A stretch of 64,000 nucleotides of DNA from NCBI GenBank assembly GCA_964587425.1, contig CAZPLB010000001.1:30545-94544 (forward strand), read 5' to 3'. The notes beneath the pieces were generated by a model that saw nothing but the letters and a program-made list of their open reading frames with translations, was not told the origin of the DNA and did no database searches. The stretch comes from an uncultured Gammaproteobacteria bacterium (lineage in GTDB: Bacteria; Patescibacteriota; Microgenomatia; UBA8517). Below, piece after piece: positions 311-61,827 of the stretch. Position numbers and translations under genes: made by a program. Numbering within the stretch: position 1 is the first letter of the stretch; each line of letters begins with the position of its first letter.

Positions 311-1177
311 TTGTCATTTATGAATGAATCGTTAAATACAATTCTTCCAGGTTTTATTGATTACCTTAAGGGAAAAGGTAGATCTCCTGCCACCATCTTA
401 GCCTACAGGGCAGATCTTGGGCAACTCATCGAATTCATTACCGCTCGAAACAAAGCTACAGCTCTCCAGGTTAATGCTTCTGATATTGAGGGATTCCGCG
501 ACTATTTACTTGCCCAGAAATATACTCCAAAGTCAGTTTCCAGGAAACTTAATGCTGTCAAAACCTTTTTTGGATGGCTTCATGAAAACAACATTGTTAG
601 CTTTGATCCTTCAAAAACTGTGTCTCACCCCAAACTTGAAGCTCAGCCACCAAAATTCCTCTCCCCGCTTGAATATAGGGCACTAAGGGATACTGCAAGA
701 AGCGATATCAGGATTGCAACAATAATTGAGCTTATTTTGCAGACTGGGATGAGAATTTCAGAGATTGCTTCTTTGAAGAAAGAGCATATTAAAGAAGAAA
801 TCATAATAATTGAAGCTTATGCAACACAGAAGACAAGGGAGATACCTTTAAATCAGATAGCTAAAAACACTATACAAACATTTTTACAAATGCATCCAAG
901 CAGCGCTGAATTTATATTTGTAAGCAAGAACGGGAAGCCGCTTGCTATTCGAAACATTCGCGCAATGATTGATAGATATTTTCAGAAGGCAGAGGTTCCA
1001 CAGTATTCAGTTAATGATTTGCGTACCACTTTTGTAATTGAAAACTTAAAAAGAGGGGTTGATTTGGTTCTAATCTCTCAGGTAACTGGACACAAGAGAC
1101 TTTCGACCACTCAAAGTTATTTGGAGCTGGCTGGAGTCAAAGAACCTGGTAAAAAACAAAAATTAGAAGAGCTTTAA
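311..1177 (+). CDS. Tyrosine site-specific recombinase, XerC/XerD (phage integrase) family
   Basis: N-terminal SAM-like domain 'ILAYRADLGQL'; C-terminal catalytic region with 'HKRLSTTQSYLEL' (His..Arg..Tyr) typical of Xer/integrase. Confidence 0.85.
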   Translation: MSFMNESLNTILPGFIDYLKGKGRSPATILAYRADLGQLIEFITARNKATALQVNASDIEGFRDYLLAQKYTPKSVSRKLNAVKTFFGWLHENNIVSFDPSKTVSHPKLEAQPPKFLSPLEYRALRDTARSDIRIATIIELILQTGMRISEIASLKKEHIKEEIIIIEAYATQKTREIPLNQIAKNTIQTFLQMHPSSAEFIFVSKNGKPLAIRNIRAMIDRYFQKAEVPQYSVNDLRTTFVIENLKRGVDLVLISQVTGHKRLSTTQSYLELAGVKEPGKKQKLEEL

Positions 1178-2282: not shown

Positions 2283-2356
2283 TGGTGGGCCCTGATGGAG
2301 TCGGACCATCCTTTGGTCTTTATAAGAGACCCGTCCTAGCCGATGAACGAAGGGCC
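2283..2356 (-). tRNA. tRNA-like element / possible pseudo-tRNA. It has a 7-bp acceptor stem, a D-arm with GG, a T-arm and an encoded CCA, but the anticodon stem carries only a 6-nt loop (CTTATA).
   Basis: Minus strand reads GGGCCCT-TC-GTTC-ATCGGCTA-GGAC-G-GGTCT-CTTATA-AGACC-AAAG-GATGG-TCCGACT-CCATC-AGGGCCC-A-CCA. This is a GC-rich island inside AT-rich DNA. Confidence 0.45.
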
Positions 2357-2372
2357 CAGATTGCCAATTATA

Positions 2373-2735: not shown

Positions 2736-5093
2736 TTAAAGTTTTGCGCGTCTTGTGATTTCTGCTTCAACCAACCTCATGTCTTTGCCATATCTTAGCC
2801 TACTCATTTCTATTATGATTTCTGCAATTCTTGGGTTTTCTGATGCTTTAATCTTTGCAATATCTTTAGTCATATCAAGTGAGAAAGGAGAGACGGGTTC
2901 ATTGCCAACAATTGTCTTTATGTATGCATGGTGTTTTTCTACATTCAAAAGATCATCCTCTGCAAAAACAGGGGTGAATTCATGGGTTAAGTAACTGGCA
3001 TCAGTTACTCCAACTCTATATGAGATGATTGTTCCCACATTTCCAAAAATTGCATTTTTAACTTCTTCTTCTACTTGTCCTATAAATTGGTTGGCAACGA
3101 TAAGACCAAGTCTGTATTTTCTAGCTTCAGATAGTATTACTGCAAAGTCTGGGGTGGCGAAGTTTTGAAACTCGTCAACATACAAATAGAAGTCACGGCG
3201 CTGACTTGGATCTTTAATGTCTACCCTACTCATAGCGGCCATTAGAATTCTTGGAACTATAATTAACCCCAAGAAGTTGGAGTTCTCTTCTCCCAAGCCT
3301 CCTTTGGCAAGATTAATGAGAAGGATTTTTCCTGTATCCATAATTTCTCTGAAATCAAAGGCGCTTTGGGATTGGCCAATGATGTTTCTGATGAGTTTAT
3401 TTGTAACAAACCTTCCAAATTTTGAAGTGATGTAGTCAAGAACCTCTGACTTATGGAAATCTGAGGTTTGGGCTATTTGATCAGTCCAATACCTTTTGAC
3501 TATTGGGTCGTCAACTCTTGGAAGGAGTTCTTGAACATATTTTGCATCTGTCAGAATTCTCATGATTTCAACAAAAGTTGAACCCGGCTCTGCACTCATG
3601 GCTGTTAACATGGCATTTCTAACTGCATGTTCAAACCTAGGTCCAACTATTCCAGTTTTGTATGGATCAAAAAGCTTGTACATCATATTAATTACAGCTG
3701 TTGCTACAAAGTGCTTTTGATCTTCTGTTTTTGCCTCAAGAAGATTTAGTCCCATGGGACGCTCTGTATCACTGGGGTTAAAGTAGATGACATCTTCAGC
3801 TCGCTCTGGGGGGATGAGCTTTAAGATATCTTCTATGGCGTCACCGTGGGGATCCATGAAGCAAAGCCCCTTACCTGCTCTAATGTCCTGTAAGATCATG
3901 TCTTTCAAAAGTTCTGATTTTCCAGTTCCTGTTTTACCTATGATGTAGACATGGCGCATACGATCTTCATTTCCAATATAGACAGGACGCTTTACTCCTC
4001 TATATGAACTTTCTCCAAGGTAGAGACCTGATGTTGGGATTTCAGATGGGGCCGGGGCAGTTTTGCTGTAGACCCAGTAAATATGAGGGGTGGTAATGAA
4101 CTTATTTGGGAAATGGAAAATGGTTGCCAACTCTTCTGAATTTAGTACTGATTTATGGGCGCCTCTGACGTTATACATTGGCTGATATCTATACAGAAAA
4201 TCCTCCATAAACATTGCTTTTCTTCTTACTTTTCTTCCACCTAATCCATTTAGGTCTCCATTGTATTGTTCAAAACTTGTACTAATATTTGTTAAGTGAG
4301 CCTTGGCGGAACCCTCACTTTGGGCAACAACTACAATTCTAACTGCAACTTCGAACCCTGGTTTTGCTATTTTATTTTCCACCGCTTCAAGGGTTTTGGC
4401 AGGAACACTAAACTTTGCTTTTTCTGGATCTGATTCCTGTTTTTTGGTGCTACTTATAAAACCCTTTCCTTCCTTTTGCCAAGGCAACTCTGCTGGAGAC
4501 AAAACTATTTGGATGGCTGCGGCTTCTCCTTCTCCCATTTTGGCAAGAGCTGACGTTATTGAGGACAGAGGATCAGTTGATAGTTCTCTAAATGTTTTAA
4601 TTGGGTAAAAACTGGGTTTTTTTAACTGAAGAGATTTATATGCTACTGCTCCATTTTCTGTAAAGATATTGTATTCTTCAACTTCTTGAATTTCGGCGTC
4701 TGGATAAGCTCCATGAACTTGTTTTTCAATCAAATCCTGCATCTTTTTGGGAGCCCAGATGTAGAACCTAATGTCCTCTTTTCTTGCAAGTATTTCAAAG
4801 GAAATAGTAGGCTGAATATCATATTTTTGTTTCCAACCTCCTTTTTTCATTGAAGAAAGCGATCCAATAAGTTGTTCCATTGCATCAATTTTTACTTCGT
4901 TGCCTCTTGCTACTCCCACTTGCAAGAGAACTGAGTCAATTGATCTTTCTTCTCTTTTTCTATTTTTAAATAATGTGAAGCCGATAAATCCTAGTGCAAA
5001 AAGAATAACTGAGAGAATGGCAATGAGGCCAAGAACCACAAAGATGGCCGCAAAATTGATTGTTGGAATTAAAGTAGACTCTTGTACAAACAT
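2736..5093 (-). CDS. TraG/TraD/VirD4-like type IV secretion coupling-protein-family ATPase with N-terminal TM segment and a long pre-ATPase domain
   Basis: N-terminal TM helix; Walker A 'IIGKTGTGKSELL' followed by 'CFMDPHGD'; Walker B/TraG-D_C-like 'LYVDEFQNFATPDFAVILSEARKYRLGLIVANQ'. Confidence 0.7.
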   Translation of the reverse strand: MFVQESTLIPTINFAAIFVVLGLIAILSVILFALGFIGFTLFKNRKREERSIDSVLLQVGVARGNEVKIDAMEQLIGSLSSMKKGGWKQKYDIQPTISFEILARKEDIRFYIWAPKKMQDLIEKQVHGAYPDAEIQEVEEYNIFTENGAVAYKSLQLKKPSFYPIKTFRELSTDPLSSITSALAKMGEGEAAAIQIVLSPAELPWQKEGKGFISSTKKQESDPEKAKFSVPAKTLEAVENKIAKPGFEVAVRIVVVAQSEGSAKAHLTNISTSFEQYNGDLNGLGGRKVRRKAMFMEDFLYRYQPMYNVRGAHKSVLNSEELATIFHFPNKFITTPHIYWVYSKTAPAPSEIPTSGLYLGESSYRGVKRPVYIGNEDRMRHVYIIGKTGTGKSELLKDMILQDIRAGKGLCFMDPHGDAIEDILKLIPPERAEDVIYFNPSDTERPMGLNLLEAKTEDQKHFVATAVINMMYKLFDPYKTGIVGPRFEHAVRNAMLTAMSAEPGSTFVEIMRILTDAKYVQELLPRVDDPIVKRYWTDQIAQTSDFHKSEVLDYITSKFGRFVTNKLIRNIIGQSQSAFDFREIMDTGKILLINLAKGGLGEENSNFLGLIIVPRILMAAMSRVDIKDPSQRRDFYLYVDEFQNFATPDFAVILSEARKYRLGLIVANQFIGQVEEEVKNAIFGNVGTIISYRVGVTDASYLTHEFTPVFAEDDLLNVEKHHAYIKTIVGNEPVSPFSLDMTKDIAKIKASENPRIAEIIIEMSRLRYGKDMRLVEAEITRRAKL

Positions 5094-6019: not shown

Positions 6020-9000
6020 TTAACACTCAGCATGGCCACAGGAGTAACATTTTGCACAGCCTTCTTCTAATACCAAGCTTGCTTCCCCACAACTGGGACA
6101 AATGTCTTTGTGTGCCTTTTCAAGAAGACTAGGCTGCATGGTTACTTTTGGCACTACATGACCATTGCCTTCTGAGTCTTGGTAACCAATGAAGCCAAAG
6201 TGCATTCCTAGGGCTTTTGCTACAGCATCTGGAAGGCTTCTAACTTTGTTTACTCCAAAGCCAACTGATCCTGCTCCCCCAATTCCTTGGAGTTGTTCCA
6301 TGATTTCTCTAGCTCTTTCTTTTGCCGGGAGGTGATTTCCAAATCTAAGATTAGTTGAAATTAATCTTCCTAAAGCCTCTGCCATGGCTGCAAGTTCACT
6401 GCCTGCTTTTCCTACTGCGCAAAATACTTCAAATGGATTACCATCTTCATCTTGATTTACTGTGATGAAAGCATTGCCCATTGGGGTTTTTATTTTGTAT
6501 GTTGCCCCCTCTACTTTTACTGGGCGTTCTTTAATTGTAACCTCTGGTTTCTTTTCTTCTTCCTTCTTTTCATCAACTTTTGAAAGAACTCCCATGCGGC
6601 TTCCATCTCTAAAGTAAGTTACACCCTTGCAGCCTAGTTCATATGCCAAGGTATAAAGTTTTTTGACGTCATCTACTGTGTGAGAGTTAGGGGCATTGAC
6701 TGTTTTACTAATGGATGAGTCGACATATTCTTGGATTTTTGCCTGGACACGGACGTGCTCTTCTGGAGTTAGTTCACTTGCGCTTACAAAATAGTTAGGT
6801 ACTGTTTCACCTTGGTGCCTGTCCATCCACTCTTGGTAGAGAGGGTGATTAACTATGTGAACTCCAGTTCTGTCTGTTCTTTTGTAACTAAATTCATAAA
6901 CTGGTTCTATCCCAGAGCTTACTCCTGCCAAAAGAGATATAGTTCCAGTTGGAGCTTGGGTCAAGATGACAGCATTCCTAATTCCCTGGTCTGCAATTTT
7001 TTCTTGAATTTCAACAGGAAGTTTTTTGATGAATTGTCCTTGGAGATATTTTTCTTTTACGAATCCACCAAATACTCCTTTTTCTTTAGCGAGGTCGCTT
7101 GAAGTATTGTAGGCAGTATCACGAATGGTTTTGTATATTTTTTCAATTGTGACAAGAGATTCATCGGATCCATATCGAAGACCCATTTTTATTAGAGCGT
7201 CCCCTAACCCAAGCGTTCCAATACCAGTTCTTCTGATGTTCATTTGTGCCTTTTTATTTTCTTCGTAGAAATAATAGTTTGCATCAACTACGTTATCTAG
7301 GAATCGTGTAGCTGTTGCTGTGTGTTCTGCCAGGCTTTCATAATTCATTTGTCCATTTTCAACAAAAGCAGAGAGATTTAAATGGCCGAGGTTACAGACT
7401 CCCCATGCTCCCAATCCTTGCTCTCCACAGTTGTGAACTACAAAACCATTTGCAATGAATGAATGAGTCAATGGCTCTGTTAGATCGTATACCCATTCTT
7501 TTCCGGTAAACTTCAAGTCTTCAAAAGTTACTTGAAATTTCTCTTTGTAAGTACCATCTTTGTAGCCTTTTAGGGCATCAATTAGTTTTGCATTTTTATA
7601 GTCAACTAAGAATCCAATTTCTTTTGCAAATTTCCACAAATTATCTTTTGATATGACAAGATCGTGATATTCTTTGCAGAAATAGTCTTTCCTTCCACCT
7701 TTGCCGTCTGGCATCGAACGGTAACCGGCGTCTCTTCGGTTGCAATATATTTTTGAAGCAACTCCAAAGTTTAAAAGAAGTCTCTGGACATCTTGGAGCA
7801 TGTTGTAACTAACTGAAGTTAGCCTAACACTTACTCCTTTATCTGCTGTGCCTGCAACATGTCCGTCTGCTGTAAATAAAGCTTGTAAGAATCCTTTTTG
7901 CATATCTTCACTACCTGTGAATATTTTTTCTGGGACATTTATTTTATTTCCCGGAGTAATGCCATATTCAGAGACTAGTTTCCAAAGTCTTGTAGACCCT
8001 ACCCTTGCTTCATCTCTTTCGTCAATCCAGCCGACTCCCACTTTGTAATCTCTCTGGTTGATTTGCATTCCATCTACCAAATGGTTTACCATACTCGCAA
8101 ATTTGGGGGCGAGTTGCTGTTTTTCCTGTCCAAAGAAGGAGAGTACAGCTTCTGTTGCTTTCATTGTTCCGTCTCCTACCAACCAGCCTAAAACTTGTCC
8201 AAGTTCTTCGCTGCCAACTTTACCAAACCCTCCTTTTTGGTTTGAAATAAGAACCTTGTTTCCTTTTTTTAGATCCTTTGCTTTTTTCCACCCTTTGTCT
8301 GTCATCACTTGGTGGTCATTTGTAAGTTTTAATTCATATCCTTCTCTTGTTGTTAGTTTGTAAACTTCTTTAAACCCTGTTTTTACTGTTTTTGAACTTT
8401 TTGTCCATGAACCTTTATTAAATCTTCCATCGATTAAAACGTTTGGTTCTATTTTTGAATCAAATAAGTAAGAAGCTCTTAATAGACCATCTTCAGTTGA
8501 AACCAATGTGTCTCCTGTAATACAAGGGTTTGTTGCAATAATTTTTTCGAAGTACCAAGTGTTACTCATTTTGTTGTACCTATCGATAAATACTGCACCT
8601 GGTTCTGCACTTCTCCAAGCTGCTTCACAAATTGAATTCCAGACGTCCTTTGCTTTTACTGTTTTGTAAAGTTTTACTGGATAACCTTTTTCCTTCCATC
8701 CTTTCAAATCACCGTCCCAGACTTCATCATAGTTTTCATGCGTTGTGTCTGGAAATTCCAATTTCCAATCTCCATCTACTTTAACCGCTTCCATAAAGTC
8801 ATCTGATACACAAACTGAAAGATTTGCTCCTGGGATTTTTGTTAAGTCTTGTTTTACTGTTATGAATTCTTCAACATCTGGGTGCCAGTCGTTAAGCATT
8901 AACATGAGGGCTCCACGTCTACTGCCACCTTGTTGGATGACATCGTGGTTGGCTGTTGAATAGAGACTTGCCCAGTTGACAGGACCCGATGATAGGCCAT

Positions 9001-9517
9001 TAACCTTTCTTACTCTTGCTCCTCTTGGACGAAGAGAACTTAGGTTGATTCCAACTCCACCAGCACGGGATTGGATTTCTACTGTCTTTGTTATATTGTC
9101 CATAATTCCTCCACGGCTGTCGCTTGGAGACGGGATAACATAGCAATTGTAGTAAGTTACTTCATATGGAGTTCCTGCTCCTGAAAGGATTCTCCCCGCT
9201 GGAACAAACTTAAAGCCTTGCATTGCTTTGTAGAATTTTTCTTCCCAGGGTTTTCTATCTTTTGGTTTTTCAACTTGAGAGATGCCCCAAGCAACACGTC
9301 TCCACATTTGTTCTGGATATTTCTCGAGTGCTCTTCCCTCCTCTTCATCTTTAAGAGAATATCGGTCGAGAAAAACTTCTTGTCTGAAGCCATCCAAGAC
9401 TGTTGGATTGGCAGGGGCATCAAAAACAAACTCCTTGTTTCTTTTTTTAGGAGTTACAATTTGTTTCTTTTTGTTTTTCTCTTTTTCAATAACTACTGTT
9501 GCTGGCATATATTTCAA
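6020..9517 (-). CDS. nrdJ: Ribonucleotide reductase, probably adenosylcobalamin-dependent class II (NrdJ), interrupted by an intein; C-terminal Cys-rich zinc-ribbon-like tail
   Basis: Active-site 'ATNPC|...|GEQ' split by intein; conserved blocks 'RAGGVGINLSSLRPRGA', 'CGEQ'; C-terminus 'CPSCGE...CAKCYSCGH'; adjacent PduO supports AdoCbl dependence. Confidence 0.8.
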   Translation of the reverse strand: MKYMPATVVIEKEKNKKKQIVTPKKRNKEFVFDAPANPTVLDGFRQEVFLDRYSLKDEEEGRALEKYPEQMWRRVAWGISQVEKPKDRKPWEEKFYKAMQGFKFVPAGRILSGAGTPYEVTYYNCYVIPSPSDSRGGIMDNITKTVEIQSRAGGVGINLSSLRPRGARVRKVNGLSSGPVNWASLYSTANHDVIQQGGSRRGALMLMLNDWHPDVEEFITVKQDLTKIPGANLSVCVSDDFMEAVKVDGDWKLEFPDTTHENYDEVWDGDLKGWKEKGYPVKLYKTVKAKDVWNSICEAAWRSAEPGAVFIDRYNKMSNTWYFEKIIATNPCITGDTLVSTEDGLLRASYLFDSKIEPNVLIDGRFNKGSWTKSSKTVKTGFKEVYKLTTREGYELKLTNDHQVMTDKGWKKAKDLKKGNKVLISNQKGGFGKVGSEELGQVLGWLVGDGTMKATEAVLSFFGQEKQQLAPKFASMVNHLVDGMQINQRDYKVGVGWIDERDEARVGSTRLWKLVSEYGITPGNKINVPEKIFTGSEDMQKGFLQALFTADGHVAGTADKGVSVRLTSVSYNMLQDVQRLLLNFGVASKIYCNRRDAGYRSMPDGKGGRKDYFCKEYHDLVISKDNLWKFAKEIGFLVDYKNAKLIDALKGYKDGTYKEKFQVTFEDLKFTGKEWVYDLTEPLTHSFIANGFVVHNCGEQGLGAWGVCNLGHLNLSAFVENGQMNYESLAEHTATATRFLDNVVDANYYFYEENKKAQMNIRRTGIGTLGLGDALIKMGLRYGSDESLVTIEKIYKTIRDTAYNTSSDLAKEKGVFGGFVKEKYLQGQFIKKLPVEIQEKIADQGIRNAVILTQAPTGTISLLAGVSSGIEPVYEFSYKRTDRTGVHIVNHPLYQEWMDRHQGETVPNYFVSASELTPEEHVRVQAKIQEYVDSSISKTVNAPNSHTVDDVKKLYTLAYELGCKGVTYFRDGSRMGVLSKVDEKKEEEKKPEVTIKERPVKVEGATYKIKTPMGNAFITVNQDEDGNPFEVFCAVGKAGSELAAMAEALGRLISTNLRFGNHLPAKERAREIMEQLQGIGGAGSVGFGVNKVRSLPDAVAKALGMHFGFIGYQDSEGNGHVVPKVTMQPSLLEKAHKDICPSCGEASLVLEEGCAKCYSCGHAEC
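7430..8524 (-). mobile_element. Intein (365 aa) with LAGLIDADG-type homing endonuclease, inserted in the RNR active-site NPC|GE motif
   Basis: Starts 'CITGDTLV', ends 'VVHN' followed by extein Cys; LAGLIDADG-like blocks 'LGWLVGDGT' and 'LQALFTADGHV'. Confidence 0.8.
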
Positions 9518-9595: not shown

Positions 9596-10216
9596 TCAAA
9601 AGCTGTCAAAAGGGTTTTGGGGAGAGATTCTGCCCATATCAACTAAATTGCTTTTGGTCTCGAGGAAAAGTTTCTTGGGGTAATCCTCTGCCTGAACTAT
9701 CATTGGCTTGGCATCTTCTGGGGCATAATTCATGATTTCATCCATGACTTGCCTGTGCTTGAGCGTTGCCAATGCAAACCTTGAAAGGAATTCTGATGTA
9801 TCTGCTCCACTTGTTCTTGCTTTCTGTTCAGCATATTTTGCTTCTTCTAAATATTTTTCTGCTTTCACTAGAACTGACGCCCCAAGATCTGAATTTCCAT
9901 CTTTAAAGAGAGTTGTAGATTGTGCGAGCCTTTTGTCTGCAATAGTAAGAAGAGTGTTGGCTTTTTTCAGGTTGTTGAATGCAAATACTACCCAGAGTCT
10001 GTCTCTTACAGCCTTAAATGGCCAAAAAGGACTGTCTGGAGCAATTGGACCTGGGTAAACTAATTCATATTTTATATCCATGTCTTTTGCTGCGACTGGA
10101 GTAGGGCTTGGGGTTTGACCAAAAGCATATTGTATTTGTGAAGATTCAAGAATTGAGAATGCAAGAATTAGACTTGCGAAAAGAAAAGTTGCCGAAATTC
10201 CCGCTAAACGCTTCAT
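9596..10216 (-). CDS. Secreted DUF5667-like protein (signal peptide)
   Basis: N-terminal signal peptide; family common in CPR genomes. Confidence 0.45.
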   Translation of the reverse strand: MKRLAGISATFLFASLILAFSILESSQIQYAFGQTPSPTPVAAKDMDIKYELVYPGPIAPDSPFWPFKAVRDRLWVVFAFNNLKKANTLLTIADKRLAQSTTLFKDGNSDLGASVLVKAEKYLEEAKYAEQKARTSGADTSEFLSRFALATLKHRQVMDEIMNYAPEDAKPMIVQAEDYPKKLFLETKSNLVDMGRISPQNPFDSF

Positions 10217-10281: not shown

Positions 10282-10926
10282 CTATCTAAATAGCATTATT
10301 GGCCATTCCCAGAGGACATGAAGAAGGATTGAGGAAGAAATGTTTCTGGTTCTTGAATAGAGATATGTGGAGCCAAGACCGAATACAAATGTTAGAAAAA
10401 TGTAAACAATGGAAGTTGCAAAATTGTATTTCCAAACAAAGATCATTACTGGAACATGGATTACTGTCCAAAGAACGCTAGTTATTATGTTTGATGTGAA
10501 TTCATTTTTAAAAACAAGAGAGAGTCTTGTAAAAATGTAGCCTCTGAAGGTGATCTCTTCCGATATGGCTGTTGCAAAAGAAATTCCAAGCGAGCTAAAA
10601 ATTCCTAGTGTTCCCAGGTTTGCCTGAAAATTAAGGTGGCCATACTTTACAAAATTTGTGACAATGGCCTCAATTGCAAAAAGGGAACCAAGAGCTAGAG
10701 AGAGATATATTGCTGGAAAGAGATTTTTAGTGGTTATACCAAGGTTTTCAAGTTTGAGGTGTCCTCTTTTAAAGAAAAAGAAAGTGGCTCCAAGCCAAAT
10801 TGCCGGCTTTAATACTAACTCCTCTACTTCCTGTGGGAGCTGAAAAAATAATCTATAGAAACCCCATACAACAAAGAGGAAAACAAAAAGACTTATTGAA
10901 TCTTTGAGTGCCCTAACCTTCCCCAT
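10282..10926 (-). CDS. CPBP (CAAX protease/Abi) family intramembrane metalloprotease
   Basis: Multi-TM; signature 'ISEEITFRGYIF' (EExxxR) and downstream His motifs. Confidence 0.8.
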   Translation of the reverse strand: MGKVRALKDSISLFVFLFVVWGFYRLFFQLPQEVEELVLKPAIWLGATFFFFKRGHLKLENLGITTKNLFPAIYLSLALGSLFAIEAIVTNFVKYGHLNFQANLGTLGIFSSLGISFATAISEEITFRGYIFTRLSLVFKNEFTSNIITSVLWTVIHVPVMIFVWKYNFATSIVYIFLTFVFGLGSTYLYSRTRNISSSILLHVLWEWPIMLFR

Positions 10927-11411
10927 TATTTAATTCTACACTCTTTAAATGATGTATCAATGGCTGTCACCACCTGCCCTACTCTATCTCTGGCTCCATC
11001 ATAATTTACTACTCTTTTTTCTTCTGGAAACCAGTGGAAAACTAAATTTCTGCAGTTTTTCCATGTCTCCCAAAGCATATCTGGAACCTCCTTACTCCCT
11101 AAGAATTCAACTAACTTGTCATATACACCTTCTTTTCTAAGGAATGGCTCAAGCTGGGGGTTTAGAGCTTTACCAATCCTGAAGTGTTTTCCATAATAGT
11201 CCTCTTCTCTAATGAACTTTAGGTCAAGGAGTAATTTTTTTAAATATCCTTCGTAGGCCTTGGCTGCTGGGAATACTATGAAAGAATAATCGTGGAAACT
11301 TTGATTGTTGCCTTCAAACTTATCTATCAAAAGGAATGACTCTTCAAGGAGTTCACGAAGGTCTTCTTCTAAATAGTCATACCAAGGTTTGTCTTTGATA
11401 TTTGCTTCCAC
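10926..11411 (-). CDS. Hypothetical protein with HEPN-like Rx4H motif ('CRNLVFHWF'), translationally coupled to the CPBP protease
   Basis: 1-nt overlap with the downstream CPBP gene; motif match only. Confidence 0.35.
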   Translation of the reverse strand: MEANIKDKPWYDYLEEDLRELLEESFLLIDKFEGNNQSFHDYSFIVFPAAKAYEGYLKKLLLDLKFIREEDYYGKHFRIGKALNPQLEPFLRKEGVYDKLVEFLGSKEVPDMLWETWKNCRNLVFHWFPEEKRVVNYDGARDRVGQVVTAIDTSFKECRIK

Positions 11412-11469
11412 GTAAAGAGTATATCGCTCTTGGGATTAAAATAAAAGACAAGATTGGAGTATAATTTAG

Positions 11470-13734
11470 ATGCTCATGGAAAAGAAGGTTGAAGAGATCT
11501 CAGAAAAACGAAAAGAGATCTTGGAGAAAGTTACTAATCAAAAAAAATACGGTAATATCTTTAGTAGATTGAGGCACAATGTTCACCTACAGAAGAAAGT
11601 AATTTTCTTTGGAGTAGTTGGAACTGCTTTGATTTGGTTTTTTTCTGGAGTCCCTCTACCCACTACTCTTGGACAGCAAGTTGCAGTATCGAGCAAAATA
11701 ATGGACAGGAATGGGAAACTTATATATGAAGTTTTTTCTGAAAAGAAAAGAAGTCCTATAAAAATATCTGAACTTCCTGATTCTGTTAAAAATGCCACGG
11801 TTTCAATTGAGGATAAAGACTTTTACAAACATAGTGCATTTTCACCAACTGGAATTCTTCGCGCCATTTACAGCACTGTCTTCAAGAGAAAAGTCCAAGG
11901 AGGGTCTACTCTTACTCAACAACTGGTCAGAACTGCGTTTTTGACAACTGACAGAAGTTTAATTCGTAAGGCAAGAGAATTTTTCCTTGCAATGATAGTT
12001 GAAGCCATTTATACCAAAGATCAGATACTTGAAGCATATTTAAATCAAGTTCCATATGGGGGAAGCGCATATGGAATTGAGGCAGCCAGTGAACTTTACT
12101 TTGACAAACCAGCCAAAGATTTAACACTTCCTGAGGCATCGCTTTTGGCTGGGTTAACCCAGGCTCCAACACAATATTCTCCTTTTGGTGCACATCCAGA
12201 ACTGGCAAAACAGAGACAAGAGGTAGTCTTGCAGACAATGGTTGACAATAAATACATATCATTTGATGAGGCAACTGTTGCCAAAACTACTGAACTGAAG
12301 TTTGCAACGCCTCAAAACATTAATGCTCCACACTTTGCTCTTTGGATTAAGGATCAACTAGCTCGTAAGTATGGTGACTTGTTGGTTGAAGAAGGCGGAC
12401 TTCGAGTCACTACTACTCTTGACCTTGATTTACAAAATTTTGCACAAGATGCTGTCGCAACAGAAGTTGGTAAATTGAAAAAGCAAAATGTAGGAAATGG
12501 GGCATTGATTGCAACTCGCCCTGGAACAGGAGAAATCTTGGCAATGGTCGGGAGCAAAGACTATTTTGCAAAAGATGAAGATGGACAAGTAAATGTGATA
12601 CTTGCAAATCGACAGCCTGGATCATCAATTAAACCACTTAATTATGGGCTTGCAATCAAGGACAAAAAAATAACTCCTGCAACTATTATTGCTGATGTTC
12701 CAACATGCTTTGTTGTAGCTGGTCAGCCTTCATATTGTCCTACCAATTATGACCATAAATATCATGGCGGGGTTGCTGCCAGATTTGCGCTTGGAAATTC
12801 ATTTAATATTCCTGCTGTTCGAGTGTTGGATTTAAATGGAATAGATAACTTTATAAATTTTGCAACAAGCCTTGGAATTACAACATTTACCGATCCTTCA
12901 CAGTATGGACTTTCATTAACTCTTGGAGGAGGAGAAGTGAGGCCATACGATATGGCTGAAGCATATGGAGTGTTTGCAAATCAAGGAATCAAAGAGCCAC
13001 TAACTGCAATTTTGAAGGTTACGGATTGGAAAGGAAAAGTATATGAAGATGACACACCTAAAGAACTTGAGGGAGATAGGGTACTTGGAGAAGATGTTTC
13101 ATTTTTGGTTTCGCATATTTTACTAGACAATAATGCAAGAACTGAGGCCTTTGGACCAAGTTCATTTTTGAATGTCAAAGGACACCCTGAAGTATCTGTC
13201 AAAACTGGAACTACTAATGACAGAAGAGACAATTGGACAATTGGCTACACTGGACAAATAGTTGTTGTTACATGGGTTGGAAATAATGACAACTCACCAA
13301 TGAGCGGGGCTGTGTCTGGAGTTTCTGGGGCATCCCCCATTTGGAACAAAGTGATTAAGTTTGCTCTCGATAAATCTGAGAAGGGTGCATACAACTCAAA
13401 AGATGAGGGGCACGCTTGGCCAAAGCAACCATCAAACGTTGTTGGTGCAAATGTTTGTGCAACTACTGGGGCAAGGCCAACAAGTACCGACCCCAATGTT
13501 CCAAATTGCCCTGCAAGATTTGAATACTTCTTAGAGGGTACTGTTCCGGCTGCGGCTGATGAACTGAGACAAGATGTTGTTGTCTACAAAGATACACATA
13601 TGCTGGCTGGATCAAAAGCACTTCCAGAGCAAGTTCAAACAGAAAACCATCCAGTATTAATTGATCCATTGAAAACTTTGATGTGTCTTGACTGTCCTCT
13701 ACCAACAGAGCCGGTTATTATTAGATATCCATAA
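11470..13734 (+). CDS. Bifunctional penicillin-binding protein 1A (GT51 transglycosylase + transpeptidase)
   Basis: GT51 motifs 'EDKDFYKH', 'GGSTLTQQL'; transpeptidase 'SSIKP' (SxxK). Confidence 0.9.
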   Translation: MLMEKKVEEISEKRKEILEKVTNQKKYGNIFSRLRHNVHLQKKVIFFGVVGTALIWFFSGVPLPTTLGQQVAVSSKIMDRNGKLIYEVFSEKKRSPIKISELPDSVKNATVSIEDKDFYKHSAFSPTGILRAIYSTVFKRKVQGGSTLTQQLVRTAFLTTDRSLIRKAREFFLAMIVEAIYTKDQILEAYLNQVPYGGSAYGIEAASELYFDKPAKDLTLPEASLLAGLTQAPTQYSPFGAHPELAKQRQEVVLQTMVDNKYISFDEATVAKTTELKFATPQNINAPHFALWIKDQLARKYGDLLVEEGGLRVTTTLDLDLQNFAQDAVATEVGKLKKQNVGNGALIATRPGTGEILAMVGSKDYFAKDEDGQVNVILANRQPGSSIKPLNYGLAIKDKKITPATIIADVPTCFVVAGQPSYCPTNYDHKYHGGVAARFALGNSFNIPAVRVLDLNGIDNFINFATSLGITTFTDPSQYGLSLTLGGGEVRPYDMAEAYGVFANQGIKEPLTAILKVTDWKGKVYEDDTPKELEGDRVLGEDVSFLVSHILLDNNARTEAFGPSSFLNVKGHPEVSVKTGTTNDRRDNWTIGYTGQIVVVTWVGNNDNSPMSGAVSGVSGASPIWNKVIKFALDKSEKGAYNSKDEGHAWPKQPSNVVGANVCATTGARPTSTDPNVPNCPARFEYFLEGTVPAAADELRQDVVVYKDTHMLAGSKALPEQVQTENHPVLIDPLKTLMCLDCPLPTEPVIIRYP

Positions 13735-13793
13735 TTATTTTCTTGATCAAACTCCCCGTTTAATATTATGGGTTTGAATGATACAATCGGTGC

Positions 13794-16217
13794 GTGGTTA
13801 AGCTTCGAAAGAAAGTTTCAAATTTAAAAATTTTTGCCAGTATCTTAGTTTTTATTGGGAAACCTTTTTACATCATCTTTAGTTATGTTGTTATTGGAGT
13901 ATTAACTTTCTTCTACGTCATTGGAAATAGAAGTAGGATCTTGGTTGAAAAAACTTTTGCAGTAACTCAAAAATTAATTAAGAGAGCTAAGAAGAAAAAG
14001 GTTCGTTCAAAGAAAAAGGCAAAGAAGTTTAAATTTCCAAAACTGATTTTCCCAAGTATTTCTTTTACCCTCCCAAATTTCTCTTTCTCTCCAAAAGTTT
14101 TTTCCAAGAGATTTGTACACATAACGAAAACAAAGTCTTCAAAAAAGAAGTTACAAAAGAAAAATGTTCTTCTCGAAAAATTAAATATTTCGAAAGTATT
14201 ACTTTTTTCTAAATTAAGTGTTGGGAGAAAAGTAAAGATTGGTGGAATAATTTTTGTGTGTTTGGCTTCTATTGTTTTTTTCATATGGAATGGTGTTTTT
14301 CGCAGTCTCCCCTCTTCAAAAGAATTGATGAGCCGTAAGATTCAGGTTTCAACTAAGATACTAGACAGAAACGGACAACTCTTGTATGAAATTTACAAAG
14401 ATCAAAACAGAACTCCCGTTTCTCTTTCTCAAGTCCCAAATGAAGTAAAAGCAGCTACTCTTGCTTCTGAGGATGCTGATTTTTACAACCATCCAGGGTT
14501 TTCTGTAAAAGGAATTGTTAGGGCTTTATTTAATGATGTCACTCATGGACAACTGAGTGGAGGATCTACAATTACACAGCAGTTGGTTAAGAATGCATTA
14601 CTTACACCACAGAAAACTTTTACAAGAAAAATTAAAGAACTTGTTCTTTCTCTTGAAGTAGAGGCAAATTTCTCTAAAGATCAGATTCTTGAGATGTATC
14701 TCAATGAGGTTTCGTATGGAGGAAGTGCGTACGGAATACAGGAGGCTTCAAGGATTTATTTCGGAAAGGATGTGACTGAAATTGATTTGGCTGAAGCTGC
14801 ACTCTTGGCAGGTCTTCCTAAAAGTCCAACACAATACTCCCCGCATGGAGCTGACCCTGAACTTGCTATTGAACGACAGAGGGAGGTTTTGAAACTGATG
14901 TTTGATAATGGATTTATAACAAAGGAACAACAAGATGCCGCACTGAGTGAGAAACTCACTTTTTCAGCAAGCGATATCTCAATTAAAGCACCACATTTTG
15001 TAATGTATGTTAAACAGCAATTGGTTGATAAATTTGGAGAGGAAATGGTTGAATCTGGAGGACTAACTGTGACAACTACTCTTGACTACTCTATTCAAAA
15101 AATGGCTGAGGGGGTTGTTAAAAAACAAATTGGGCAATTGAAAAATTATCATGTCACGAATGGAGCGGCTATAGTTATGGATCCCAAAACTGGAGAAATA
15201 CTCGCCATGGTTGGATCTGAGGATTACTTCAACACAAAGAATGACGGTGAAGTGAACGTGACCACATCACTCCAGGAACCTGGGTCTTTTGTAAAGGTAA
15301 TTAATTATGCATATGCATTGGGGCATGGGTTTACTCCGGCTTCCATAATTTCTGATACTCCCACTAAGTTTATTGTTCCAGGGCAAGCGCCATATATTCC
15401 TGTTAATTATGATGGCAAGTTTGTTGGAAATGTCACACTTCGCTCCGCCTTAGCACAGTCTAGAAACATTCCAGCTGTTAAAGTTGAAGAGTCATATGGG
15501 GTTGATAAAATGGTTGCCTTGGGGCAGAAGATGGGAATTACTACATGGAAGGATCCCTCTTTATATGGACTATCTTTGACTCTTGGAGGAGGAAGCGCCA
15601 AGCTAATTGACTTGGCACGAGTTGGGTCAACAATTGCAAACTATGGAGCGAGGCCTCCCTTGCTTTCAGTCTTGAGGGTAACTGATTACCGCGGAAAAAG
15701 ATTAATTTACGGGTGCGATAGTGAAACTTGCACTGAAGAGCAAGTCATAACTCCTGGAGTAGCATTTTTATTAATTGATATATTAAAGGACAACAAGGCT
15801 CGTGCTCCTGAATTTGGATTCAGATCTCAACTTGTTGTTACTGGGCACCCTGAGATTGCTGTAAAAACTGGGACGAGCAATAGTTTTCGAGACAATTTGA
15901 CGATAGGGTTTAGCCAGAAATACTTAACTGCTGTATGGGTTGGAAACAATGACAATTCACCTATGAATAGAATTGCATCAGGGATTACAGGGGCAGCACC
16001 CATTTGGAATGAAATCATGAATAGACTAATGGCACAAGAGCCAAGCCTGGCTTGGGAGGCACCTGATGACGTACTTTCAATGCAGGTGTGCGGGTACAGT
16101 GAATGGTTTCTGAAGGAGGCGAAAGTAAAAGTTAATTGCGGTTTAAATAGCACTGCAAAAGCAAATAGTAATATAAAAAAGGAAGATATATTAGATGGAA
16201 TTAGTACTTCGCGTTAG
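13794..16217 (+). CDS. Second bifunctional PBP1A paralog (tandem), with lysine-rich N-terminal extension
   Basis: 'EDADFYNHPGF', 'GGSTITQQL', 'SFVK'; same domain order as upstream gene. Confidence 0.85.
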   Translation: MVKLRKKVSNLKIFASILVFIGKPFYIIFSYVVIGVLTFFYVIGNRSRILVEKTFAVTQKLIKRAKKKKVRSKKKAKKFKFPKLIFPSISFTLPNFSFSPKVFSKRFVHITKTKSSKKKLQKKNVLLEKLNISKVLLFSKLSVGRKVKIGGIIFVCLASIVFFIWNGVFRSLPSSKELMSRKIQVSTKILDRNGQLLYEIYKDQNRTPVSLSQVPNEVKAATLASEDADFYNHPGFSVKGIVRALFNDVTHGQLSGGSTITQQLVKNALLTPQKTFTRKIKELVLSLEVEANFSKDQILEMYLNEVSYGGSAYGIQEASRIYFGKDVTEIDLAEAALLAGLPKSPTQYSPHGADPELAIERQREVLKLMFDNGFITKEQQDAALSEKLTFSASDISIKAPHFVMYVKQQLVDKFGEEMVESGGLTVTTTLDYSIQKMAEGVVKKQIGQLKNYHVTNGAAIVMDPKTGEILAMVGSEDYFNTKNDGEVNVTTSLQEPGSFVKVINYAYALGHGFTPASIISDTPTKFIVPGQAPYIPVNYDGKFVGNVTLRSALAQSRNIPAVKVEESYGVDKMVALGQKMGITTWKDPSLYGLSLTLGGGSAKLIDLARVGSTIANYGARPPLLSVLRVTDYRGKRLIYGCDSETCTEEQVITPGVAFLLIDILKDNKARAPEFGFRSQLVVTGHPEIAVKTGTSNSFRDNLTIGFSQKYLTAVWVGNNDNSPMNRIASGITGAAPIWNEIMNRLMAQEPSLAWEAPDDVLSMQVCGYSEWFLKEAKVKVNCGLNSTAKANSNIKKEDILDGISTSR

Positions 16218-60937: not shown

Positions 60938-61525
60938 ATGGTGGATAGAAAAATAGGTTTTATAAGTCAACTCGAAGAAATAATGACAGGTCTTCCCTTT
61001 GAAAAATGTACTTTTGTGACTGAATCAATTACTGGAGATAAAGGATGGTATGCCCCAAAAGGTTACGCTTTTAAAATTTCAGGGCAATTTATTCTAGGCT
61101 GTGATCAATCTTTAGGTAATTGGGATGTCGTGATACCTTCTGCAAGTGTAGATTTGTTGAAAGAAAATAACGAAGAACCATCCGAAGAAGTTGGTACTCC
61201 ACCAACAGAATTTACAGGAAAATGGTTGTATATAGATATATATGAACGTGGAGTACAACTCTACGTCAAACAAAATAAAAATTTCTATTTTGAAAATGGA
61301 AAAGGTTGGTTGACTGAAATAGATGGATATTACTTTTCTACACAAGGAGTTCCTGAGATGAACTCAGTTGAATGGGAACAAAATTATGCTCAAGGAATGA
61401 TTGGTTTTTGCAGCATTGAACTTGTCGAGTGTGAAGAACAAGAACCACAGTTATATACACCTTTGGAAAATCATACAGAAGACAGTCTTACGTTACCGAG
61501 TATCTCCAAGAAATATAGTATATAA
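60938..61525 (+). CDS. Hypothetical protein
   Basis: ORF only. Confidence 0.35.
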   Translation: MVDRKIGFISQLEEIMTGLPFEKCTFVTESITGDKGWYAPKGYAFKISGQFILGCDQSLGNWDVVIPSASVDLLKENNEEPSEEVGTPPTEFTGKWLYIDIYERGVQLYVKQNKNFYFENGKGWLTEIDGYYFSTQGVPEMNSVEWEQNYAQGMIGFCSIELVECEEQEPQLYTPLENHTEDSLTLPSISKKYSI

Positions 61526-61526
61526 C

Positions 61527-61788
61527 TGGCTCCCCGGGTAGGATTCGAACCTACGACCTCGATCTTACAGAAATCCTCTTGTTACCAAGAGGGCTGGACT
61601 ATTTCATCATCCTTTTCAGGATGTCGGGTATATAGTCTCTACACATTTACCAAGATATCTTGGATTTAGCTCGAGATTGTCCTTTTTTTGAAAGGAGTTC
61701 CTCGAATTAGCCCAATTTTCATCCTGGTGTTACCACCAAGAGCTGCCTTACTCAACAGGATCTCGCGCTACCGCTGCGCCACCGGGGA
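61527..61788 (-). tRNA. tRNA-Asn(GUU) gene split by a ~187-nt intron within the anticodon (exons approx. 61755-61788 and 61527-61567)
   Basis: Spliced product reads TCCCCGG-TG-GCGC-AGCGGTA-GCGC-G-AGATC-CTGTTAA-GATCG-AGGTC-GTAGG-TTCGAAT-CCTAC-CCGGGGA-G-CCA. Loop CUGUUAA matches bacterial tRNA-Asn. One A27:G43 mismatch. Confidence 0.6.
61568..61754 (-). ncRNA. Putative self-splicing group I-like intron in tRNA-Asn
   Basis: U preceding the 5' splice site can pair as U:G with intron 'GCAG' (P1-like). The intron ends in G. There are two GNRA (GTAA) hairpins, TTGGTG/CACCAG and CCTCTTG/CAAGAGG, plus a CCAAG-ATAT-CTTGG hairpin. Confidence 0.4.
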
Positions 61789-61827
61789 ATGTATGTAAAG
61801 GAACAAGGCTATTATACCAATTGGAGT

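Follow-up and report, generated by a model that had tools for sequence, protein, structure and literature searches.

A small soluble protein encoded in a 64,000-nucleotide stretch of DNA from an uncultured bacterium (contig CAZPLB010000001.1 of assembly GCA_964587425.1, positions 30,545 to 94,544; hereafter the window) is a HEPN domain that belongs to the RnlA/LsoA (RNase LS) branch and has its active site intact, and its gene is paired with, and in related lineages fused to, a gene for an Rce1-like intramembrane protease of the CPBP family. The analysis draws throughout on sequences, predicted structures and comparisons between metagenome-assembled genomes, in which the taxon labels are partly placeholders, 'uncultured Gammaproteobacteria' being attached to loci that are syntenic with Woesebacteria ones. 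The two proteins may together form a membrane-localised, RNA-cleaving module with a lineage-specific housekeeping or envelope-linked role, and not a mobile toxin-antitoxin (TA) or abortive infection (Abi) cassette, a reading whose chances are judged to be about even. The housekeeping or envelope-linked role is preferred because the unit appears to be vertically inherited, is fixed in position and is always divergent from two class A penicillin-binding protein (PBP) genes.

The HEPN gene (10926..11411, - strand) encodes 161 amino acids (aa) and starts with GTG, the N-terminal MEANIK of its product matching MEVNLK in aligned homologues. The preliminary description of this locus had proposed a small HEPN protein from the Rx4H motif R121-N-L-V-F-H126, which lies in the string CRNLVFHWF (motif at 11034..11051, - strand). 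An R-x4-H string alone is weak evidence, as we estimate that about one protein in 7 of such a size would carry one by chance. The match in this protein goes far beyond chance, because the residues are invariant and the motif aligns with those of LsoA and RnlA. R121, N122, F125 and H126 are the same in 82 of 82 orthologues, the R, N, F and H of the motif are also invariant in 25 HEPN-CPBP fusions, and the RNxxxH form is retained by nearly all of the listed full-length representatives of the family at 50% identity. A family profile matched LsoA in the PDB across the whole domain (E 0.018), with RNLVFH aligned to the catalytic RHGLFH; a single-sequence phmmer search of the protein against the PDB gave no match, and only the family profile reached LsoA. 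In profile alignments with E. coli K-12 RnlA, RHSLFH (R318-x4-H323) corresponds by position to R121-x4-H126, and hhalign and hmmsearch paired RnlA D245, Y246, P252, R255, E258 and G259 with D41, Y42, P48, K51, E54 and G55 of the HEPN protein, respectively. K51-A-Y-E54 (11250..11261, - strand) is the counterpart of RnlA R255/E258, and this second catalytic pair, K51 and E54, is likewise invariant in all 82 orthologues, with K in place of the R of RnlA. Residues R255, E258, R318 and H323 are indispensable to RnlA activity, which also needs the Rx4-6H motif to mediate dimerisation in the canonical HEPN manner (PMC8266594).

By Pfam, the HEPN protein matches PF19034 (RnlA-toxin_DBD) at E 1.7e-5, with 25.6 bits against a cutoff of 27, and PF18869 (HEPN_RnaseLS) at E 4.9e-4, with 20.9 bits against a cutoff of 29; all 26 aligned homologues match both families at E<0.01, the best at 4.6e-7, and NCBIfam gave no match to the protein. 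The protein has the all-alpha, up-down helical bundle of HEPN topology and consists of the HEPN domain alone, without N-terminal TBP-like (NTD/NRD) or RNase H-like domains. Profile searches against HEPN families, the check that had been proposed for this protein, returned the RnlA/LsoA HEPN models and no non-HEPN fold. Because the Pfam, profile, RnlA-alignment and invariance lines agree, the 161-aa protein is a stand-alone HEPN domain of the RnlA/LsoA branch with an intact site, and the proposal of a small Rx4H-bearing HEPN protein is upheld by fold, profile and residue conservation. Residue conservation and the RnlA data (PMC8266594) indicate that it is probably an active endoribonuclease.

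The downstream gene (10282..10926, - strand) encodes a CPBP (Rce1-like) glutamic intramembrane protease of 214 aa with its catalytic motifs kept. The product matches PF02517 at E 8.3e-17 (61.7 bits, cutoff 22.4) and carries EExxxR, FxxxH and HxxxB motifs in which E123, E124, R128, H157 and H203 are conserved, the first of these, E123-E-I-T-F-R128, being located by translation and conservation at 10543..10560 on the - strand. Its hydrophobic segments are those of a multi-pass protein, its fold matches SpdC and Rce1, and it appears to be a bona fide, catalytically competent CPBP protease. The HEPN and CPBP genes meet in a TAATG stop/start overlap (10924..10928, - strand), where the bases cat at 10924-10926 and tta at 10926-10928 read TAATG on the - strand, and the sequence agrees with the earlier account of a 161-aa open reading frame (ORF) with CRNLVFHWF that overlaps a CPBP gene by 1 nt.

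The HEPN family is compact, with 1739 clusters at 90% identity and 219 at 50% among 1.84 billion representatives, and where its taxa are labelled they are Woesebacteria, Microgenomates or Patescibacteria. The pairing was followed in 81 loci, 80 from species-representative genomes and one from a metagenome contig, two of them (L026 and L074) coming from one bin. HEPN and CPBP genes are adjacent and on the same strand in 72 of these 81 species-level loci. Among the 72 pairs, 16 overlap, 30 are separated by 0-30 nt, 23 by 31-100 nt and three by more than 100 nt; measured from the start codon that matches best, the gaps span -31 to +144 nt, and the 1-nt overlap of the window is not itself conserved among these orthologous pairs. 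Given this spacing, co-transcription of the split genes is likely. When the search was started from stand-alone CPBP orthologues of other Microgenomates, the upstream gene encoded 161-162 aa in both of two loci, with a Pfam HEPN match in one and no Pfam match in the other. The remotest lineage examined (P0328) has a nearby CPBP that shares only 22-31% identity with the other CPBP proteins and is set apart by a kinase-like gene, and it was not counted as strong evidence for the pairing.

In addition to the split arrangement, two of the 50%-cluster representatives are 383-aa proteins in which the HEPN domain is followed by CPBP. A search with one of these fusions, P0125, led to 25 distinct fusion clusters at 90% identity, of 369-393 aa and 39-64% identical to P0125, from Shapirobacteria and other Microgenomates; the fusions read as one uninterrupted ORF and come from many independent contigs. 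Both domains retain their catalytic residues in the fusions, the CPBP EExxxR being invariant as E292, E293 and R297, and all fusion loci occupy the same chromosomal position, divergent from two PBP1A genes. The TAATG overlap of the window sits exactly at the domain boundary across which the fused orthologues read through. That the 383-aa fusions are artefacts, with overlapping genes joined by a frameshift, was considered and rejected, given 25 distinct clusters of which several occur on up to 11 contigs of different origin (P0125 and P0293 on 11 each). With adjacency in 72 of 81 loci and fusion in 25 clusters, the prediction that the pairing would be conserved elsewhere holds. As the HEPN fold and the conserved pairing both stand, neither of the two outcomes that the preliminary description had set against its own proposal, a non-HEPN fold and a pairing not conserved elsewhere, was found. 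In one of the genomes that carry a HEPN-CPBP fusion, another CPBP gene stands alone next to the DUF5667 region (L091, 10042..10686), and its product is 43% identical to the window CPBP, as against 35% for the C-terminal half of the fusion itself; this second copy is closer to that of the window, and therefore CPBP duplication and/or repeated fusion has to be assumed. Strict one-to-one orthology of the C-terminal half of every fusion is not claimed.

The HEPN family appears, from these comparisons, to be tied to the membrane in three ways, namely through an operon partner, through fusion and through an anchor of its own. The last of these is found among distant members, where the HEPN domain carries one to four N-terminal transmembrane (TM) helices in 16 of 72 full-length 50%-cluster representatives. 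These anchored relatives were not used as support for the link with CPBP, their contexts being variable and CPBP-free, and they speak to the membrane theme only. In the predicted structure of the fusion (predicted local distance difference test score, pLDDT, 83.5; predicted template modelling score, pTM, 0.69), a HEPN helix at residues 137-158 is followed by a TM helix at 160-195.

The pair stands in a conserved arrangement, which across the 81 loci runs PBP1A, PBP1A (divergent) / HEPN, CPBP, DUF5667, ribonucleotide reductase (RNR). A divergent PBP1A gene lies less than 1 kb from the HEPN start in 76 of 76 loci with enough upstream sequence and is the most constant neighbour, the tandem PBP pair being conserved across Woesebacteria and the fusion lineages. 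The DUF5667 gene is downstream of the pair in 76 of the 81 loci, with LeuRS or other genes in between in the fusion lineages. Such synteny is also the starting point for a far less sympathetic explanation, that the two genes lie side by side without functional connection, in a genome that rearranges slowly, and that the 1-nt overlap is incidental. Adjacency alone is indeed unspecific where the whole block from PBP1A through HEPN-CPBP and DUF5667 to RNR is syntenic, the variable overlap fits the same explanation, and the HEPN-CPBP pair does not stand out in mirror-tree correlations, partial correlations for HEPN, CPBP and DUF5667 (partial r 0.46, 0.41 and 0.26) leaving co-evolution inseparable from shared phylogeny. 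This explanation is nevertheless hardly probable in the face of 25 divergent fusion clusters that retain both active sites, of related HEPN domains that are independently membrane-anchored, and of lineages in which DUF5667 and RNR have drifted away and HEPN and CPBP stay together.

The locus shows none of the marks of mobility that were sought. The HEPN gene is single copy in the window, and the GC and composition profile has no anomaly and no island signature at the pair. PADLOC assigned none of the three proteins submitted to a family, and no relative was found in phages and plasmids by tblastn or in IMG/VR by a pattern scan. Identity to the window protein has a median of 53% for both HEPN and CPBP, compared with 64% for PBP1A, 42% for RNR and 40% for DUF5667; the divergence of the pair therefore falls between those of PBP1A and RNR and appears housekeeping-like. 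The unit is most readily seen as a vertically inherited, fixed, non-mobile chromosomal gene or gene pair of Microgenomates. At a distance of 5-10 kb from the pair, the window also encodes an XerC/phage-integrase family recombinase (311..1177, + strand) and a VirD4/TraG-like coupling ATPase (2736..5093, - strand), with no sign of a joint mobile element that includes the HEPN locus. In two relatives, small TA pairs of classical type (ParE/Phd- and BrnT/CopG-like; L092 1005..1504 and L093 3136..3676) are inserted near the PBP1A genes, immediately upstream of HEPN. Mobile TA cassettes do land near the HEPN locus, but they look quite different from the HEPN-CPBP unit.

In the mechanism proposed for the membrane-localised module, HEPN and CPBP would act as one functional unit, encoded by split genes in Woesebacteria and by fused ones in Shapirobacteria and other Microgenomates. 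CPBP would hold the RNase domain at the cytoplasmic face of the membrane, the last HEPN helix passing nearly straight into the first TM helix in the fusion model, and the split proteins would be in physical contact. HEPN RNases cut only as dimers that unite two Rx4H motifs, and because cleavage needs dimers CPBP would be positioned to gate the RNase; its own protease residues are kept alongside this presumed gating role. The constant PBP neighbours may further point to a link between the unit and peptidoglycan synthesis. Several observations weigh against this reading. The substrate-binding R255 of RnlA is replaced by a lysine in the HEPN protein, which itself falls just under the gathering thresholds of both PF19034 and PF18869. 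A pTM of 0.69 gives only moderate confidence in the inter-domain geometry of the fusion, and the TM-anchored relatives lack a constant gene context. The PBP synteny could reflect slow rearrangement rather than shared function. Finally, the CPBP gene is absent from the locus in eight clear cases, in which HEPN persists without an adjacent CPBP.

These losses bear even more heavily on a type II-like toxin-immunity pair, in which CPBP would neutralise a toxic HEPN RNase. By nearest-neighbour analysis they fall into at least six separate lineages, counting the locus only, so that a copy elsewhere is possible; the HEPN genes left behind retain every catalytic residue, and in locus L012 an unrelated soluble ORF stands in place of CPBP. 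Toxin-immunity dependency is disfavoured, because an obligate immunity protein should not vanish while the toxin persists, and the role of immunity partner that the preliminary description had given to CPBP loses its footing. Some CPBP/Abi proteins do act as bacteriocin self-immunity factors, and the gene pair is tight and sometimes overlapping. HEPN domains are also common TA toxins according to the 2013 HEPN survey (PMC3710099). A covalent toxin-antitoxin fusion that is stable over 39-64% divergence would however be atypical, and the toxin-first order is that of RnlAB, but the window is without an RnlB homologue. Together with the fixed syntenic position and the lack of any mobility signal, these points make a toxin-immunity pair very unlikely. 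The broader suggestion of a toxin-immunity or Abi module also finds no support in a single-copy, syntenic gene with housekeeping neighbours that has no match in PADLOC, phages, plasmids or IMG/VR.

A chromosomally fixed Abi or stress-suicide system, in which CPBP would sense membrane perturbation, for instance by phage entry or lysis proteins, and release or activate the HEPN RNase on cellular and phage RNA, deserves more consideration. Among characterised proteins the nearest relatives are RnlA and LsoA, endonucleases that act on mRNA against phages (PMC3710099 and PMC8266594), and CPR (candidate phyla radiation) bacteria have few recognised defence systems according to another report (PMC6509639). 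The HEPN catalytic site is intact and both active sites are kept in the fusions, as such a system would demand. It is unlikely all the same, as the unit has no PADLOC match and no phage, plasmid or viral-contig homologue, occupies the same chromosomal position among housekeeping neighbours in every locus examined, and shows a housekeeping-like divergence, unlike conflict genes, which typically evolve fast and are patchily distributed. The putative sensor, moreover, has repeatedly been lost without loss of the RNase.

The reverse direction of control is also conceivable, with HEPN in a regulatory role, or binding RNA or a nucleotide as ligand, and CPBP as the effector under its control, which in turn would process an envelope protein such as the PBPs or DUF5667. 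The catalytic residues of CPBP are invariant, the association with class A PBP genes is constant, and among solved structures the one nearest to the CPBP half is that of SpdC/LyrA, a partner in the SagB-SpdC peptidoglycan-release complex (bioRxiv 10.1101/2020.05.21.109470). Some HEPN domains are non-catalytic binders, as stated in the HEPN survey (PMC3710099). However, non-catalytic HEPN domains normally lose Rx4H, whereas K51, E54, R121, N122 and H126 are invariant in this family, and HEPN persists after CPBP loss; the SpdC top match is itself weakly informative, because there are only two CPBP folds among the PDB matches. Control of the protease by HEPN is accordingly regarded as doubtful.

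Comparison with known systems places the HEPN-CPBP unit apart from each of them. The HEPN domain is related to those of RnlA and LsoA (E. coli RNase LS), but the protein is without the TBP-like NTD/NRD domains of RnlA, and its partner is a membrane protease instead of an RnlB- or Dmd-type antitoxin; tblastn of RnlB against the window gave nothing below E 4.6. The rnlAB genes lie inside prophage CP4-57, whereas HEPN-CPBP is chromosomal and syntenic and appears vertically inherited in CPR bacteria. In HepT/MntA (HEPN-MNT, type VII TA) the partner is an MNT nucleotidyltransferase, which is lacking in the present unit, and the HEPN domain belongs to a different branch; HEPN-CPBP is furthermore neither patchy nor mobile, and its partner is dispensable at the locus. 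Among CPBP/Rce1-like proteases (PF02517), including S. aureus SpdC/LyrA, it is the HEPN partner or fusion that differs. SpdC is catalytically inactive, whereas the window CPBP keeps its catalytic residues. We know of no CPBP protein with a cytoplasmic HEPN RNase as partner or fusion, and a limited literature search for papers combining HEPN and CAAX protease found no description of the architecture. The term 'CAAX' is absent from the 2013 HEPN survey (PMC3710099).

Ire1 and RNase L offer a likeness by analogy only, in that a dimerisation-dependent RNase of the HEPN superfamily is tied to a sensing module, which is transmembrane in Ire1. Their KEN domain is classed as HEPN in the survey (PMC3710099), and the sequence relationship exists only at superfamily level; the HEPN-CPBP unit has no kinase domain, and its membrane part is a protease fold. 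By an Ire1-like logic, a HEPN RNase of Microgenomates rigidly coupled to CPBP would turn the condition of the envelope, or of peptidoglycan synthesis through the divergent class A PBP operon, into specific RNA cleavage, as a core, non-defensive function that may partly replace a membrane-bound initiator of RNA decay in genomes as reduced as these. This more specific version of the membrane-localised module is speculative and, on present evidence, rather unlikely.

To our knowledge, almost all characterised prokaryotic HEPN RNases are weapons of conflict, whether in TA systems, Abi systems or as CRISPR effectors. In the present family, domestication seems to have turned an RnlA-type HEPN domain into a fixed chromosomal gene that evolves slowly, is tied to a membrane protease or anchor and always stands next to the peptidoglycan polymerase genes. 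The unit would represent a new HEPN architecture and context with a putative but testable non-defensive role. If the RNase is active, bacteria would offer a rare case of a HEPN nuclease in housekeeping or regulation, a defined cytoplasmic partner would be at hand for CPBP proteases, most of whose functions in bacteria are obscure, and there would be a testable piece of RNA metabolism and envelope control in the uncultivated and poorly understood CPR bacteria. There is also a point of annotation, as the fusions currently appear at NCBI only as 'CPBP family intramembrane metalloprotease', and the split HEPN genes are called 'hypothetical protein'.

The genes around the pair in the window are those for a cobalamin adenosyltransferase, a class II RNR, DUF5667, two class A PBPs, DUF1189, a beta-lactamase-fold protein and a dehydrogenase. 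The two tandem class A PBP genes (11470..16217, + strand; transglycosylase/transpeptidase) run divergently from the HEPN gene and, as paralogues, share 45% identity; Pfam supports the assignment for the second of them and finds Transgly and Transpeptidase domains on the orthologues. Between them and the HEPN gene lies a divergent intergenic region of 58 bp (11412..11469), with a promoter-like site on the + strand at 11436..11465 that is a consensus match only; promoter and terminator scans scored no better than shuffles and were not used. On the other side of the pair, the DUF5667 gene (9596..10216, - strand; PF18915 at E 1.1e-12) encodes a protein with one N-terminal hydrophobic segment, a signal or anchor; any functional link between it and the HEPN-CPBP pair is conjectural.

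In the class II RNR (6020..9517, - strand; 1165 aa), residues from about 375 to 696 form an intein that bears a homing endonuclease of LAGLIDADG type (Pfam Intein_splicing and LAGLIDADG_3); the intein is absent from most orthologues, the tblastn matches being split at q384/q697. Further along the window, a group I intron (Rfam RF00028, 83.6 bits, 61575..61764) within 61515..61800 on the - strand splits a tRNA gene in the region of the anticodon loop; the stretches on either side look like tRNA halves (5' ccccggtggcgcagcggtagcgcgagatcctgttgag ... 3' gatcgaggtcgtaggttcgaatcctacccggggagcca), and the tRNA was not called by ARAGORN. In addition, the window carries a tRNA-Ile with anticodon TAT (2283..2357, - strand), which is unusual for bacteria, in which AUA is normally decoded by a modified CAT tRNA.
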